From: Escherichia coli 042 | GTDB lineage: Bacteria > Pseudomonadota > Gammaproteobacteria > Enterobacterales > Enterobacteriaceae | Assembly: GCF_000027125.1 (NCBI RefSeq) | Contig: NC_017626.1 | Strand: one strand, 5' to 3' | DNA length: 64,000 bases | Part shown: piece by piece, positions 3,626 through 46,432 of the stretch | Layout: each line of letters begins with the position of its first letter | How positions within the stretch are numbered: the first letter of the stretch is position 1 | Position numbers and translations under genes: made by a program | Notes under the pieces: model-generated | The model's database searches: none | Seen by the model: the letters and a program-made list of their open reading frames with translations, nothing else | What the model was told of the DNA's origin: nothing

Positions 3626-4226
3626 TTCACAGGTGTTTTTTCCCATCCTGTGGTTTCCTTGGCGTTTTCTAGGTTTTTTCAGATAGTTGCATTTTTTAAA
3701 AAGCATCCTAAGTTCGATCTCAGTGTCTATCTGGGGCCTATTTCTGTCCCATATATGCCCCAAAAAAACTCCCCAACAGATAAGTAGTTTTTTCATGGAT
3801 TTATGCGTAAAATCAAGAACGGCTGGAAATCATTCAATACTCACACTATCGAAAAATTTACCAGCCAACCGCAGCACGTTCTTGCATAAGGCGTGTCTGC
3901 GTTTTTTCAACTATTCAGATACATCACTCCCATCACAGTCATTCCTCCGCATCAAAGGCATATAGGCTATATCACCTTGATATTTTTCTTTTTCAGATAA
4001 AAACTGTTATCTATGTATACTTTTAAACCCAATCCGTGTAGAGTCTCTGCATAAGATAGTTTGCAGTTGCCGCTTCAGCTTGCGCCATAAACCGCCTGAT
4101 TTTTGCTGCCACCTGCTAGCATTCCTGTATACCTGAAACGACAATGTTTATCTACGAACTTTAAAAACACCCAAGATAAAAATTGTCAACTATATCATAT
4201 ATAACACATTACTAATTCGAGGCTAT

Positions 4227-5647: not shown

Positions 5648-6223
5648 CTACGGCAGTGCTGGCCATTCAATATCCTGTGCAGTTGACGTATCAACACGGT
5701 TCAGCAATACCCGATACTTTTTCCATGCTTCCAGCAACGAGATTTCTTCCTCCGTTGCAATTTCCAGATCTGCAGCATCCTGAAGCGGCGCAATATGCTC
5801 ACTGGCTACCTGCATCAGGTTGTTTTTTGTTTCTTCCGCCTCCCGGATCCGGAACAGTTTTTCTGCTTCCGTATCCTTCACCCAGGCTGTGCCGTTCCAC
5901 TTCTGAAACTCCCCTTCCGGCGATAACCAGGTAACATTTTCCGGTAACGGACCGAGTTCAGAAATAAATAACGCGTCGCCGGAAGCCACGTCATAGACGG
6001 TTTTTCCCCGATGATCTTCAACGAGATGCCACGATGCCTCATCACTGTTGAAAACAGCCACGAAGCCTGCCGGAATATCTGGCGGTGCAATATCGGTACT
6101 GTTTGCTGGCAGACCTGTATGAGGCGGAATATATGCGTCACCTTCACCAATAAATTCATTAGTTCCGGCCAGCAGATTATAAATTTTTATGGTCTGTGGT
6201 TGTTCACTCATTCTGAATGCCAT
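5648..6223 (-). CDS. tfaQ: tail fibre assembly protein (Tfa)
   Basis: 191-aa ORF immediately downstream of and overlapping stf; Tfa-like sequence. Confidence 0.85.
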
Positions 6224-30482: not shown

Positions 30483-30753
30483 GATGTTACCGTAGTATGT
30501 GAGTATCCATCGAATAGACACCAAGCAAAAAAGCTCCCGAAGGAGCCTTCATTTTCACTTTTTTAAATCCAACGACAGACGGCTGGCATTTAAGTATTGT
30601 GAAATATTATCAAATGTAATCATCATTGATTTACAAAAGATACATTTTGCCCCGAAAGGATTCATGTCAGAAACATCAAAAGATGATGTTCTATACTGGG
30701 AACCATGACAACACGGGCATCTAAAGTGAATATGGTTTGTAATATTGTCTACC

Positions 30754-30966
30754 TCAAAGCGCCACTACATGAACAGCGGCAGGACCTTTAGGTCCGTTCT
30801 CAATACCAAATTCAACTTCCTGATTCTCAGTTAATGTTTTGAAATCGTTGCTCTGAATTGCTGAGAAATGGACAAACACATCTTTGCTGCCATCTTTCGG
30901 CGTGATGAAACCAAAACCTTTTTCAGGGTTAAACCATTTCACTAAACCAGTCATTGTGTTAGACAT
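30754..30966 (-). CDS. cspI: cold-shock protein CspI
   Basis: 70-aa CSD protein [38 protein letters not shown]... Confidence 0.9.
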
Positions 30967-31328
30967 AATTATTACCTTTTGAAGAAATTAGCCCTTGGGC
31001 AGAATGGTCCGAAAAAAAATATCAGAGAGAAAAACCAACAAGGAAATCTCAAGAGGTACAAATAATAAAATTATAACAATGACTGCTTCAGATAAATTTG
31101 TAACAAACCAGAACACCATTAACGCATGATTAACCACCCATAGCAAGGATTACTTTTGTAAAGAAAAACACAGCAATGAAAGAATAGCTTTATTTATTAA
31201 TAAAACGTGTCATTCTGATTAAGACCTTTTATCTTACCCTTAAGATTTCAGGAATTTTGGCTCATGGAAGAGTCCTTTTTATTTAAATTTTACATTCCGC
31301 GATGTAAATGTTCCGATTTAATATTACC

Positions 31329-32560: not shown

Positions 32561-32776
32561 TTACTCTCCTCTCGCAGCCTTACGCCTGTCTTCTTTAATC
32601 TTGAAATAAAGATTTGTCAGATACGTCAGCAGGCCAAAAACCAGGCTACCCAGCACACCGATTGCAGCCCACTGTGACGGAGTTACTTTATCGAGTAACT
32701 GCAATGCCCAGAAACCAGCATTACCCGCCGATGTGCCATAGGCAACACCTGTTGTTAACTTATCCATTGATTTCAT
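32561..32776 (-). CDS. essQ: class II holin (phage 21 S-like), dual-start MKSMDK
   Basis: ORF 32561..32851; start chosen at [28 protein letters not shown]... (71 aa) with two TM segments. Confidence 0.85.
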
Positions 32777-32995
32777 ATCCTCACCCCGATGTACACGGAT
32801 GGTGCAATATGTTTGAAAAGATCGGAGTCTACGGGGTAGTTTTGACAGCACACGTTGTTCTCAACGGCGCTAAAAAAACATACACATTAAAAATGTGGGT
32901 AATTATTTTGAAAGAAAGTCATATATAAAATAATAATACGAGAAATGTTTTCATATTTAGTGTACTGTATACGGCCATTTATACAGGAAAAGCCT

Positions 32996-33166
32996 ATGTC
33001 AGAACGTAAAAACTCAAAATCACGCCGTAATTATCTCGTTAAATGTTCCTGCCCAAACTGCACCCAAGAGTCAGAACACAGTTTTTCAAGAGTACAAAAA
33101 GGTGCCCTTTTGATCTGCCCTCATTGCAACAAAGTATTCCAGACAAATCTTAAAGCTGTAGCCTGA
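32996..33166 (+). CDS. hypothetical 56-aa zinc-ribbon protein (CPNC...CPHC)
   Basis: ORF 32945..33166; internal ATG with AGGAAA SD gives MSERKNSKSRRNYLVKCSCPNCTQESEHSFSRVQKGALLICPHCNKVFQTNLKAVA. Confidence 0.45.
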   Translation: MSERKNSKSRRNYLVKCSCPNCTQESEHSFSRVQKGALLICPHCNKVFQTNLKAVA

Positions 33167-33223
33167 TTGATTTTATTAGTAACAAGTATTTTTTATATTT
33201 TAATAATATATTTAAAGCAGATA

Positions 33224-33250
33224 ATAAAAAACCCGCCTGAGCGGGTTTGA
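33224..33250. terminator. hairpin (acccgcctgagcgggt) with flanking A/T runs; candidate bidirectional terminator or late-operon tR'
   Basis: Perfect 6-bp GC-rich stem flanked by AAAAAA upstream and T-rich sequence downstream. Confidence 0.4.
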
Positions 33251-33529
33251 GATTGTGGTGCTTTTTGTGGGAGTCATCCACTTACGCACTTTGTTTTGCC
33301 ATGCCAGCAGTTAGCTTCTGCTGTAAAACTATTCATGCAGCAAACCTGCACTTCACCACAATGGTTAGCATACTTTTCCTGATTAAGATTTTGCCAAATA
33401 TGCTAGCCATTGTTTCATGTATTGGACCTCCTTACTTTTTATTAAAGAGATCCAATATTCACTACTCTGTCCGTATCTCTACTCAGGCATCAGCCTTCTT
33501 CGTTATCGTATACAGACGAGCGATGAATT

Positions 33530-33745
33530 TTAATCAGTAATGATGACATTTGCTGCTGCAGGACCTTTAGCACCACTCTCTATAGAGAAGGTAACCTTTT
33601 GACCTTCAAATAAGGTTCGATAATTATCATTCTGAATCGCAGAAAAATGCACAAACACATCTTTACTACCATCAACAGGAGAAATAAAGCCGAAACCTTT
33701 ATCAGCGTTAAACCATTTTACTAAACCAGTCATTTTATTTGACAT
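33530..33745 (-). CDS. cspB: cold-shock protein CspB
   Basis: 71-aa CSD protein [34 protein letters not shown]... Confidence 0.9.
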
Positions 33746-34045
33746 TCTACATTCCTTAACTTGAGCCTTTCGGCATAAATGGTTTGCATAACAGAAACGA
33801 CTTCGTACTTAATTGGAGAGACTCAAAGAAGGAATAAGTGAATAACACCTGAAATGAGAACTGCTTTAGTAAACTACTTCGTATATCGTCTGTTCTTCAA
33901 ACCGACGCAATCATTAACGCATAGTTGAACATATGAAGCAATGTTTATTTTAGACATCCAGCCATCTTCAACCCCATCAAAAAACTATAGCTTTCTTCAG
34001 GAACGTGTGTATAGTGCGCCAAGTTATCAGTATTAAGGAATTTTT

Positions 34046-34258
34046 TTGTCCCGTAAAATGACAGGAATTGTCAAAACCTTTGACGGCAAAAGCGGCAAGG
34101 GTCTTATCACCCCATCCGATGGTCGTATCGATGTCCAGCTTCATGTTTCAGCGCTCAATCTCCGCGATGCAGAAGAAATTACCACCGGATTACGCGTGGA
34201 ATTTTGCCGGATAAATGGTCTGCGTGGCCCTTCAGCTGCCAATGTTTACCTTTCATGA
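34046..34258 (+). CDS. cspF: cold-shock protein CspF
   Basis: 70-aa CSD-like protein [34 protein letters not shown]... Confidence 0.85.
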
Positions 34259-34549: not shown

Positions 34550-34580
34550 CAAAACCCGCTCATCAGCGGGTTTTCTACTT
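34550..34580. terminator. hairpin plus T-run downstream of quuQ
   Basis: aaaacccgctcatcagcgggtttt stem-loop with T-rich flanks. Confidence 0.5.
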
Positions 34581-34679
34581 TTTCTTAACGTCGGGTATAC
34601 AAAGCCCATCGTTGAAAAAATTTTATCCATATTTTTTGAAAAATGCAAACATCATGTCGCCATCTTCAGCAAAAATCAT

Positions 34680-35432
34680 TTATCTCGTCACCTTCCTCAA
34701 TTGCGCTTCCGCGTATGCTTCTTCCTGCCAGCACTTTGTTACCAGTTTACCAATGACGTCCGCATACCCCTTATACCACTGATAATCGGTCAGGTCTGGT
34801 ACCAGCTTCTGGACATGACGTCGTGCCAGCGTGGTCGGTAAACGACTAAACCGGTTTCCATTACAACGCCCACAAATCTTATATACCGGTACGCCATGAA
34901 ACCGGGTTCTTTTTTCATCCAGAACAATCCCTTTACCCTTACACCCTCTGCACGCTGTGCTGGCTTCGCCCTTACCATGGCAATGCTGACATAGTTCCTT
35001 CACCCATTCTTCCTTGATTACAGATTCCCCGCGTCTGTAGTGTTTCACCACTTCGCGCAATACATTATAAAATCCCGTACCTGAACAATGCTCACAGCGA
35101 GCCTTACTTGCCGCAGACCTGGAGTAATCAGCAAAGGCAAAACTCACGAGGTAAGGAATAATCTGTAACCGGATTTCTTCACTCAATTTGTTCAATGTCG
35201 GGTTATCCAGTGCCATCGCGTAATTTAGCAGGCCTTCAATCGCAAACTGAGGGTCCTGAACACCAACTTTTGCCAGAAATAAGGCCAACCCAAGTGGTGC
35301 TTTCGACTGCACCATCCCCTGCGCTGCCATTACATCCGTAATTGTTAAACAACCGGTGCCTGTCGCTGGAGCGTCATCGCTCAATTTTGGAGATTTTGGG
35401 GAGTAATATTTTGGTAAGGCTTCAAGGTTCAT
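34680..35432 (-). CDS. quuQ: late-gene antiterminator Q
   Basis: ORF 34680..35462; start chosen at MNLEALPKYYSPK... (250 aa); Cys-rich zinc-binding region; synteny. Confidence 0.85.
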   Translation of the reverse strand: MNLEALPKYYSPKSPKLSDDAPATGTGCLTITDVMAAQGMVQSKAPLGLALFLAKVGVQDPQFAIEGLLNYAMALDNPTLNKLSEEIRLQIIPYLVSFAFADYSRSAASKARCEHCSGTGFYNVLREVVKHYRRGESVIKEEWVKELCQHCHGKGEASTACRGCKGKGIVLDEKRTRFHGVPVYKICGRCNGNRFSRLPTTLARRHVQKLVPDLTDYQWYKGYADVIGKLVTKCWQEEAYAEAQLRKVTR

Positions 35433-39299: not shown

Positions 39300-40760
39300 C
39301 CAGAAACGCGACTTAAGAATCTACCCTATGAATGGATATGCACTCAACCGAATCGATCTTGGTTTCAATCTTTTTTATCGGGATCAGGCTTCTTTTTAGG
39401 TAACTTCGGGGGCTTAACTTGCTGATGACTTTGCGTTCGGCGCGTAAGCCAGGGATGGTCAGCTTTAGGTTTAACATAGTATTTTGAGCGTAAATCAATA
39501 CGGGCATTATCCACTCGTTCATGGACACTCTTTTCATCATCCAGTGGTATAGGCTCCGGGCCATCAACATACTTTTCCCAGCCCAGCGCTTTCCCGTCAT
39601 ACAGAACGTTAATTTCACCGTCAAAGTTCTCGCATACAGTAACAACCGAATGCCTAAGTCGATATCCCCGGCCCTCACTGCGTACCTGAAACGCACTGCT
39701 TTTGTACTGGAAAGTGAGATTTTTAGACAGAACGCGCTTCGCCTGTAGGCTGAAGATATAACCCAGTTCCTCTTCAGAATGGTGCACATCAAGATGAGCA
39801 TTATCAGTAGTACGAGGCGACGTAGCGAACCGGTTGTTATAGGCTTCAATAAAGGTCGGCAACCATGCATTTGCTGTTTCAATATCACTGATATTCTGAA
39901 GCCGCATTTCTTTGACCAGCCTGTCCTGTAGTGTCTGATTGGCGCGCTCTACCCGCCCTTTTGCCTGCGGGCTGTTGGCATGGATTGGCTCGATGCCCAG
40001 TGTCTTTATCGCACGAGTGAACTGGGTCAGCTCACCTTCCCGCTCTGGGTTATTTACCCTGAATATACTGTGTCTATCAGAGTAGAGAGCGAGCGGTACG
40101 CCATGATCATTAAGGTAACCCCGGAGGGTTTCCATGTAAGCCCGGGTTGTTTCAGCAGGCACAAAACGCAACGCCATCAACGCACTGGTGGCATCATCAA
40201 TGAAAACGATCAGTGTACATCTGGGGCCTCGATTTTCAAACCAGTCATGAGGTGAGCCATCAATCTGGATCAGTTCACCGTAAGATGGTCGTCGCATGCG
40301 GCGTTGATATATACGGGCAATTTTACGACGGCGTTCACGCCATAACCCCTCTTCTACCATCCACTTTCTGAGAGTTTCAACGGATAAAGATAAACCGTGT
40401 ATCTCGCGCAATTTTTCGCACGCAAACGTAGGTCCAAAATCAGCGTAACGGCCTTTGAGGAGTGAAATTACTGTTGCTCTGAATTCAGTAGAAAAGGAAT
40501 TATTAGGACGCTTTCCACGTCGGTGGGAAACCAGACCAGAAGGCCCTTCATTTCTATACCGTTGCACCAGACGTTTAACCTGCCGAATAGAAATGCCAAT
40601 GCGTGCCGCAGCTTGTTCCTGAATAATCTGAAGTCGGTGGAGTTCCTTATGACTCATCGTAACAGTCTCTTTGATCATGAAAAATCCCCCAGAGAATTGT
40701 CTGGGGACATTTTAGAATGGTTCAAAGGGGACATTACAGCTTGGTGTTAACAATAGCCTG
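39300..40760. mobile_element. insertion sequence (boundaries approximate) carrying a DDE transposase
   Basis: Single 437-aa transposase gene in a ~1.45 kb block that interrupts prophage gene order between flxA and the replication genes; terminal inverted repeats not resolved by eye. Confidence 0.5.
39365..40678 (-). CDS. DDE (rve-fold) transposase with N-terminal HTH, IS481/ISNCY-like
   Basis: 437-aa ORF MIKETVTMSHKELHRLQIIQEQAAARIGISIRQVKRLVQRYRNEG... with integrase-core-like region. Confidence 0.8.
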   Translation of the reverse strand: MIKETVTMSHKELHRLQIIQEQAAARIGISIRQVKRLVQRYRNEGPSGLVSHRRGKRPNNSFSTEFRATVISLLKGRYADFGPTFACEKLREIHGLSLSVETLRKWMVEEGLWRERRRKIARIYQRRMRRPSYGELIQIDGSPHDWFENRGPRCTLIVFIDDATSALMALRFVPAETTRAYMETLRGYLNDHGVPLALYSDRHSIFRVNNPEREGELTQFTRAIKTLGIEPIHANSPQAKGRVERANQTLQDRLVKEMRLQNISDIETANAWLPTFIEAYNNRFATSPRTTDNAHLDVHHSEEELGYIFSLQAKRVLSKNLTFQYKSSAFQVRSEGRGYRLRHSVVTVCENFDGEINVLYDGKALGWEKYVDGPEPIPLDDEKSVHERVDNARIDLRSKYYVKPKADHPWLTRRTQSHQQVKPPKLPKKKPDPDKKD

Positions 40761-41012
40761 CTTCTCCGTGCCTTTCGGCACGTAAGAGGCTAACCTACAT
40801 GTGTCTAGCATGAAATTGGCCTCAGATTAATGTTAAGCGTCTTGCAGGACGCGTAATGTTAACTGGGGCTTTTCTCTATCTGCCGTTGGTGTCCATGCCC
40901 GAGGCAGATAGCCTCAAGCACCCGCAGTCATTCTACTTAACTAAGATTTCCCCGCAAACCGTTTTTGTCCAGCACAGTAAATATCCAACTAAACCAATGG
41001 AGTTCGCTGTAT

Positions 41013-46373: not shown

Positions 46374-46432
46374 TTTCTGGTGACGTTTGGCGGTATCAGT
46401 TTTACTCCGTGACTGCTCTGCCGCCCTTTTTA
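46374..46432 (+). ncRNA. dicF: DicF small regulatory RNA (cell-division inhibitor, ftsZ antisense)
   Basis: tttctggtgacgtttggcggtatcagttttactccgtgactgctctgccgccc followed by TTTTT; matches DicF as I remember it; lies between ydfC and dicB. Confidence 0.8.

Follow-up and report, generated by a model that had tools for sequence, protein, structure and literature searches.

The Qin prophage gene ynfU encodes a translated, conserved small protein with a predicted zinc ribbon, and is linked to cold-shock genes across Enterobacteriaceae

Positions 32996..33166 (plus strand) of the 64,000-nt stretch of Escherichia coli 042 DNA analysed here (contig NC_017626.1; hereafter, the window) hold the gene ynfU, which encodes a 56-aa protein with two CPxC knuckles and lies between cspB and the holin gene of a Qin-type prophage. 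We find that ynfU is translated and conserved as a protein, and that it is mostly a chromosomal gene of Enterobacteriaceae, repeatedly found beside csp genes, which encode cold-shock-domain (CSD) proteins. Our full interpretation, which we hold to be about evenly balanced between right and wrong, is that ynfU is a translated, conserved gene for a Cys4 ribbon, forming an autonomous moron of Qin, not a phage function in origin, and kept beside csp genes across Enterobacteriaceae, and that its product would act as a nucleic-acid binder. The finding of the gene itself changes little; our additions are contextual, and the two worth carrying forward are the csp linkage and a structured RNA element in the 3′ untranslated region (UTR) of the neighbouring csp gene.

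The gene was already known, having been part of the K-12 annotation since a 2019 study that used Ribo-RET. The 701 bases around the open reading frame (ORF) are 100% identical to those of E. coli K-12 W3110, whose annotation gives the ORF the name ynfU and its product the name 'putative zinc-binding protein YnfU'; the counterpart in MG1655 is b4776 (1640805..1640975), inside the cryptic prophage Qin. A preliminary description of this DNA, made from the letters alone, had supposed that the ORF might be a small Qin protein of recent K-12 releases, and this identity settles the matter in its favour. YnfU matches Pfam PF23499 with 107.3 bits (cutoff 27) over residues 1-49 of 49, and NCBIfam NF038384 ('YnfU family zinc-binding protein') with 79.4 bits (cutoff 36), this sequence being the K-12 founding member of the family. 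The region is carried by approximately 30% of complete E. coli genomes and is missing from approximately 70%.

The ORF runs from the ATG at 32996 to a stop codon ending at 33166, and its product is MSERKNSKSRRNYLVKCSCPNCTQESEHSFSRVQKGALLICPHCNKVFQTNLKAVA (56 aa), with the CPNC motif at residues 19-22, the CPHC motif at residues 41-44, and 18 residues between the two. The ATG is preceded by the Shine-Dalgarno sequence AGGAAA (32985..32990, plus strand), whose AGGA core lies 7 nt before it; in the alignment of upstream regions, CAGGA(A/G) is kept at this position in about 70 species. The sequence and the ORF list therefore agree with the preliminary description, which had picked out this CPNC...CPHC ORF and its AGGAAA site, and the K-12 annotation likewise places the gene, as had been claimed, on the strand opposite the late/lysis operon. 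The first gene of the lysis cassette is essQ (32561..32776, minus strand), encoding a holin of the phage 21 S type and identified from the ORF list, annotation and a profile match; because essQ starts at 32776, ynfU falls within a stretch of some 450 nt extending from the holin gene to a hairpin described below. An in-frame ATG at 32945 was considered as an alternative start, giving a 73-aa product, and was rejected, the extension having no conservation in other species. In dinucleotide shuffles of the spacer between essQ and cspB, an ATG-initiated ORF of at least 56 aa occurred in 718 of 2000 cases (36%), and the length of the ynfU ORF is by itself unremarkable for this spacer; two CxxC motifs within a single ORF of 40 aa or more occurred in only seven of the 2000. 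Conservation and published translation data are stronger evidence for ynfU than these ORF statistics.

Using stalled initiation complexes in ribosome profiling, Weaver et al. found ynfU as a Ribo-RET start peak. Of the small proteins new to their study, chromosomally SPA-tagged YnfU reached the highest level, and it was detected in MG1655 in both exponential and stationary phase, at 37 °C in rich medium. The same authors remarked on the two CPXC knuckles and reported a moderate modelling match to PA0128. PIRT-seq detects ynfU as well, and an independent benchmark of ribosome profiling (Ribo-seq) and translation initiation sites found coverage at the gene. The preliminary description had made its proposal hang on a ribosome-profiling signal and on conservation of the four cysteines; the translation signals are published, and the cysteines are kept in the family. 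The papers found to mention the protein assign it no function and contain no low-temperature expression data for it.

Selection on ynfU was evaluated in a survey with one genome per species, which yielded 71 loci, essentially all of them from Enterobacteriaceae, most of our tallies using 70. The ORF is intact in about 70 species, with products of 49-60 aa and a conserved start position. The median ratio of nonsynonymous to synonymous substitution rates (dN/dS) was 0.12 where dS was measurable; synonymous sites were often saturated, with the proteins still 60-90% identical. Variability at the first, second and third codon positions was 0.19, 0.09 and 0.41, respectively, that of the third being 4.5 times that of the second. 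In the first alignment, residues K5, L14, P20, C22, S26-E27-H28-S29, K35, P42 and C44 did not vary and C19 and C41 hardly did, and the core SEHS...R.QKG is invariant or nearly invariant. ynfU is under strong purifying selection as a protein.

The family is tiny, with 37 hits in a deep profile search of 1.84 billion representatives; the larger multi-domain hits, four in number, were HMA-like or eukaryotic repeat proteins and contributed no informative domain fusion. Some homologs carry wrong names in public databases, such as 'Permease, cytosine/purine...' or 'aspartate carbamoyltransferase regulatory subunit' (three cases). Additionally, two bins of metagenome-assembled genomes labelled Bacillota and Flavobacterium psychrophilum (loci L051 and L079) carry typical enterobacterial ynfU-csp contigs, an odd taxonomy that probably reflects mis-binning.

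The AlphaFold2 (AF2) model of YnfU is a zinc ribbon, with strands at residues 14-18, 25-29, 38-40 and 47-49 and a core predicted local distance difference test (pLDDT) score of about 80-85. Both CxxC knuckles lie at the turn of a β-hairpin, the arrangement of a Cys4 zinc ribbon, and zinc binding is predicted on this basis. The proteins of the family are basic, with isoelectric points of 9.4-10.1 (about 9.5 for YnfU) and net charges of +6 to +8; the N-terminal tail (residues 1-16) carries a charge of +3 to +5, is itself conserved and is best explained as a disordered, Arg/Lys-rich extension. The nearest structural neighbours found with Foldseek, all non-significant, were mostly RNA-bound ribosomal zinc ribbons, and a sequence search of the Protein Data Bank (PDB) returned marginal matches to Tim15, L44e and PhnA-like proteins. 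YnfU does not reach the Pfam cutoff for the DNL-type zinc fingers (PF05180; 13.5 bits versus a cutoff of 27) or for the PhnA/YjdM zinc ribbons (PF08274; 22.4 bits versus a cutoff of 30.8), and membership in either was rejected on this ground. After CPHC, YnfU reads NKVFQTNL, with no H-L-I-x-D-N-L motif, and its match to the PhnA/YjdM structure 2akl has an E value of 0.23.

The genomic neighbourhood provides the first testable functional lead for YnfU, a protein with no known role. A CSD gene was found within 1 kb of ynfU in 51 of the 70 loci, in nine arrangements that include csp genes convergent downstream, on the same strand downstream, divergent upstream, on the same strand upstream, and on both sides; in Lelliottia, a YnaE-family gene also lies upstream of ynfU. 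There were 80 CSD genes in the 138 kb near ynfU versus a single one in 529 kb of remaining locus sequence, an approximately 300-fold difference. The linkage of ynfU to csp genes has outlived many rearrangements and deletions.

Nor is ynfU a phage function in origin: it is mostly a stand-alone chromosomal gene of Enterobacteriaceae. Lysis or Q genes were present within 5 kb in six of the 70 loci and lacking in the other 64, and the chromosomal neighbours of ynfU are ordinary metabolic or transport genes. Only eight phage records encode a YnfU relative. The order Q-cspF-cspB-ynfU-holin is the same in the working lambdoid phages 2H10, Tritos, HannyBb and PhiR42_1; PHB10 has ynfU-csp-cspF beside its integrase gene; and in the Klebsiella phage ST13-OXA48phi12.4 (ynfU at 4001..4171 of locus L003) the gene accompanies a different, 103-aa holin, with no csp gene. 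In every prophage-type locus (Qin, ST13-OXA48phi12.4, and loci L089 and L070 of the survey), ynfU is divergent from the holin gene and about 190-220 nt upstream of its start, a placement that holds across holin families, including the phage 21 S type of Qin, and also where no csp gene is present.

Within Qin, ynfU has the attributes of a moron. It has its own promoter candidate, with 10 of 12 consensus matches, and its own terminator hairpin, both consensus matches, and stands outside the phage operon; it is expressed from the resident prophage, according to the published tagging and Ribo-seq data; and it is dispensable cargo, being absent from phages that have this Q cassette, namely SfV, mEp460, Ayreon and the Stx2c phages. 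We propose that ynfU arrived along with cspB and cspF in a cargo slot between the late-promoter cassette linked to Q and the holin gene, where it would form a moron-type unit with its own sigma-70-like promoter, its own Shine-Dalgarno sequence and a two-way terminator in common with the convergent cspB.

This arrangement depends on where the late signals of Qin-type phages lie, and these can now be placed, with pR′ and tR′ directly past Q. The Q antiterminator gene (quuQ/ydfT; PF03589), recognised by annotation and profile match, occupies 34680..35432 (minus strand). About 30 nt past its stop codon is a pR′ candidate, TTGCAT-17-TAAAAT (34620..34648, minus strand; listed by the consensus scan as TTTGCA-18-TAAAAT), which is near-invariant among Qin, SfV, Ayreon and 2H10. 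The tR′ candidate found in the scan, at 34551..34574 (minus strand), is a hairpin with T-runs on both sides, and a terminator is annotated at this place in SfV and Ayreon; in the Qin-type phages, the leader of about 40 nt between pR′ and the hairpin is invariant (CAACGATGGGCTTTGTAT...). The entire stretch from Q through pR′ to the hairpin is almost invariant in Qin, 2H10, SfV and Ayreon, similarity ending right past the hairpin, and approximately 25 other phages with the same Q gene match only up to 34551. SfV, Ayreon, mEp460 and Stx2c phages combine the same Q cassette with different downstream cargo and have no ynfU. Because the cassette is inherited with Q and similarity stops at the hairpin, we assign 34648..34551 to pR′-tR′; on this assignment, ynfS, cspF, cspB and ynfU, situated between pR′-tR′ and essQ, are all cargo. 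The hairpin at 34551..34574 is also positioned such that it could end plus-strand cspF-ynfS transcripts.

The preliminary description had instead flagged a hairpin at 33224..33250 as a candidate tR′. This hairpin is real, its stem spanning 33248..33229, but it is not tR′, since the cassette linked to Q ends at 34551, 1.3 kb nearer to Q. A lambdoid tR′ is the first terminator past pR′ and is inherited with Q, whereas this hairpin lies behind cspF and cspB. Its stem (33229..33248, minus strand) consists of 8 pairs, 5 of them G-C, followed on the minus strand by the T-run TTTATTAT; the minus-strand fold has a free energy of -14.7 kcal/mol (z -3.9), and on the plus strand nothing more than TTTGAG comes after it. 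From the strand of its T-run, the hairpin is predicted to terminate minus-strand transcription, and in our reading of the sequence it closes the cspB transcription unit and not the late leader; it probably doubles as a weak plus-strand terminator for ynfU. The preliminary description had further reasoned that, if pR′ were upstream, ynfU would be antisense to the late leader. The pR′ candidate is indeed upstream, and Q-modified polymerase would therefore cross ynfU in antisense on its way toward essQ, so that a gene expressed from the resident prophage would be opposed by Q-dependent late transcription.

Upstream of ynfU, a consensus scan identified a sigma-70-like promoter candidate, TTGAAA-18-AATAAT (32908..32937, plus strand), with 10 of 12 matches. 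Genomic SELEX (systematic evolution of ligands by exponential enrichment) had located binding peaks of the RpoD, RpoH and RpoE holoenzymes and an H-NS site in the spacer between essQ and cspB, and the promoter was credited to essQ in those papers because ynfU was then unannotated. The 5′ flank that follows the promoter candidate (32938..32984, plus strand) is conserved in the alignment of 70 upstream regions, and contains, in order, the blocks (C)GAGCTAT/(C)AAGCAAT, GTGTATGGT (GTGTA(T/C)(G/T)GT) and CC(A/C)TT, and then CAGGA. Conservation across genera thus covers about 60 nt ahead of the ATG, despite the saturated synonymous sites in the gene, and the GTGTAnnGT block is present at -60..-20 in 51 of the 70 ynfU loci and almost nowhere else.

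Several explanations for this flank were tried and set aside. RNAalifold produced no consensus fold for the ynfU leader from the 70 upstream regions, and an RNA thermometer, suggested by the Qin-specific hairpin CTGTATA-N8-TATACAG, was dropped because the hairpin is neither significant (z -1.1) nor conserved. Matches noted by eye to a Zur half-site (GAAATGTT) and to a LexA box (CTGT...ACAG) fail on the second half-site or on spacing, and the conserved upstream block does not fit a sigma-54, sigma-32 or sigma-E reading. The spacer between essQ and cspB (32777..33529), taken to be intergenic, has served E. coli engineering as a chromosomal landing pad regarded as neutral (Kuhlman and Cox 2010; promoter strains of Urtecho for massively parallel reporter assays, Addgene 110244); it holds the expressed gene ynfU and a csp 3′ RNA element. 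In other strains, the stretch 32800..33500 is split by insertion sequences, IS1A in cS76a and IS200C in FDAARGOS_1281.

The RNA element lies in the 3′ UTR of cspB (33530..33745, minus strand), a gene convergent with ynfU and matched by the Rfam cspA thermoregulator at 33514..33906; the next csp gene, cspF (34046..34258), is on the plus strand according to the ORF list and annotation. The element (33249..33409, minus strand) spans about 160 nt and comprises five helices with 30 pairs, laid out by RNAalifold as a 5′ hairpin and a closing stem around three hairpins. A covariance model built from it (R1) found 19 copies in the surveyed loci, all on the csp strand. In the alignment, 92% of cells are paired, versus 24-56% with the partners slid, and 13 of the 30 pairs show compensatory changes, a figure matched by none of 500 shuffles; the G-U pairs are consistent with the minus (cspB) strand only. 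In other genera a T-run directly follows the closing stem of the element, and Qin adds an extra canonical terminator. No Rfam family matched the spacer or the element at gathering or permissive threshold, the weak matches covering the terminator hairpin only. The core of the element, at about 84% identity, also occurs downstream of a cspG-type gene on phage-plasmids that lack ynfU, at about 92 places in E. coli plasmids and in phage Cyrano (108 kb), indicating that the element belongs to the csp gene and not to ynfU. A covarying 3′ UTR RNA of mobile cspB/cspG genes that is absent from Rfam is worth carrying forward.

Between cspB and the RNA element, and overlapping the first hairpin of the latter, is an 11-codon ORF, MKQWLAYLAKS (33383..33418, minus strand), which is unannotated in K-12 RefSeq and has a perfect Shine-Dalgarno sequence, TAAGGAGGT, at 33426..33434, 7 nt ahead. 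We rejected it as a leader peptide: it has no conservation beyond E. coli Qin-type loci, and is absent in PHB10, Lelliottia and Escherichia sp. E1V33. Elsewhere in the window, matches at the Rfam gathering score were IS009 (5682..5880, minus strand), a further cspA thermoregulator, at cspI (30727..31112, minus strand), the sok antitoxin RNA of the hokD locus (40752..40923, minus strand) and DicF (46375..46426, plus strand).

What YnfU does can be approached from its predicted structure, its charge and its neighbours. We tentatively favour, at somewhat short of an even chance, a Zn(Cys)4 ribbon that binds nucleic acid, in which the zinc-stabilised ribbon and the basic tail would together make the contact. 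The target would most probably be RNA, because the persistent neighbours of ynfU encode RNA chaperones, and YnfU may then share in the RNA-handling physiology of the Csp proteins encoded next to it. A more specific proposal, made by analogy and unlikely as it stands, is that YnfU is a separate zinc-module partner of CSD proteins, a bacterial counterpart of the Lin28 and plant CSP design, which would tune their RNA-chaperone activity; it might bind RNA, possibly csp mRNAs or the structured 3′ element, in temperature or growth transitions. If true, such a partnership with Csp proteins would explain why csp genes have remained neighbours of ynfU in Enterobacteriaceae despite many rearrangements.

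Several observations weigh against this cold-shock connection. YnfU was detected at 37 °C in rich medium, and not specifically in the cold; 19 of the 70 species have no csp gene nearby; and the linkage events are not fully independent, because many loci descend from a single ynfU-cspB-cspF block. No upstream motif common to ynfU and the csp genes was found, and ynfU has no cspA-type thermoregulatory 5′ UTR, the Rfam cspA thermoregulator matching only cspB and cspI. Likewise, a paired AF2 model of YnfU-(GS)15-CspB, built with 30 same-locus pairs and a weak test of interaction, had a predicted TM-score (pTM) of only 0.37, and the tail was not ordered in it, so that the model lends no support to a direct complex.

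The ribbon could instead dock on a larger protein, as is the case for many small proteins of bacteria, making YnfU a protein-binding small regulator that engages, for example, a chaperone, as the Hsp70-escorting DNL fingers do. We consider this rather unlikely, given the sub-threshold zf-DNL score and the missing D-N-L motif reported above; moreover, the strong positive charge and the conserved basic tail suit nucleic acid better, and no partner gene other than csp is conserved beside ynfU, the paired model with CspB not being confident. A special case of RNA binding would be a ribosome-associated zinc ribbon, serving as an accessory or alternative small component under stress. The top Foldseek matches are small zinc-ribbon proteins bound in the ribosomes of archaea (9o17_AZ among others), L44e/eL42 and bS18b match weakly by sequence, and YnfU is basic, abundant for a small protein, and adjacent to cold-shock genes whose products act on translation. 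All these matches are non-significant, however, and a family found only in Enterobacteriaceae and missing from so many E. coli genomes is unlike a core ribosomal factor, which makes a ribosomal role very unlikely.

Its position in prophages suggests two further roles. YnfU might be a DNA-binding phage regulator of lysis or late genes, similar to small zinc-finger activators such as P2 Ogr, since it is a basic zinc protein whose gene, in all the prophage-type contexts identified, lies directly and divergently upstream of that for the holin. About 90% of the species-level loci are not prophages, however, and the protein is equally conserved there, while the slot between Q and S is a general cargo site, filled with unrelated genes in other phages that have this Q; we therefore regard such a regulator as highly doubtful. 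Alternatively, the ynfU transcript and not the protein might matter, with antisense interference guarding against leaky late (lysis) transcription and the ORF being incidental. The gene does face the pR′-to-essQ transcript, with its promoter candidate upstream of essQ, some 170 nt from the start codon; but the protein is detected, its cysteines are invariant and, decisively, the low dN/dS and the conservation of ynfU in loci devoid of lysis genes reduce a purely antisense role to next to nothing.

Among known systems, the YnfU family itself (PF23499/NF038384) is matched over its full length, with the two CPxC knuckles and the 56-aa size, and nothing differs. YnfU resembles the DNL type (Tim15/Zim17/Hep1) in having similar spacing and several of the same residues over both knuckles (E 0.013, 2e2z_A); the DNL family, however, comprises eukaryotic organellar Hsp70 escorts, and YnfU, below the Pfam cutoff and without D-N-L, is not a member. 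With the PhnA/YjdM N-terminal ribbon (PF08274; PA0128, PDB 2akl) it has in common a short Cys4 ribbon and a weak Pfam match, but no PhnA domain is present at its C terminus, and the invariant core SEHS...RVQKG is its own. Com of phage Mu offers an analogy: it, too, is a basic Cys4 zinc protein carried by a phage, has about 60 aa, and controls translation through RNA binding. It showed no sequence relation to YnfU in any search, and com shares an operon with its target, unlike the monocistronic ynfU. Lin28 and plant CSP/GRP2 carry the CSD and fused CCHC knuckles on a single chain. These proteins and the ynfU-csp loci both pair a CSD with a small zinc module rich in Cys, but the Cys4 ribbon is encoded here by a separate neighbouring gene, and the resemblance is an analogy.

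The closest parallel for the organisation of the locus is provided by the lambdoid morons, of which the stx genes of 933W and nmpC of DLP12 occupy the slot between Q and S, and bor and lom of lambda lie elsewhere. Like those of the Q-to-S slot, ynfU appears as an autonomous unit situated between tR′ and the holin gene, is expressed in the resident prophage, and varies in its presence among phages that have one and the same Q cassette. It differs from them in opposing late transcription, so that Q read-through would hinder rather than boost its expression, and in being mainly a chromosomal gene in other genera, where it travels with csp genes.
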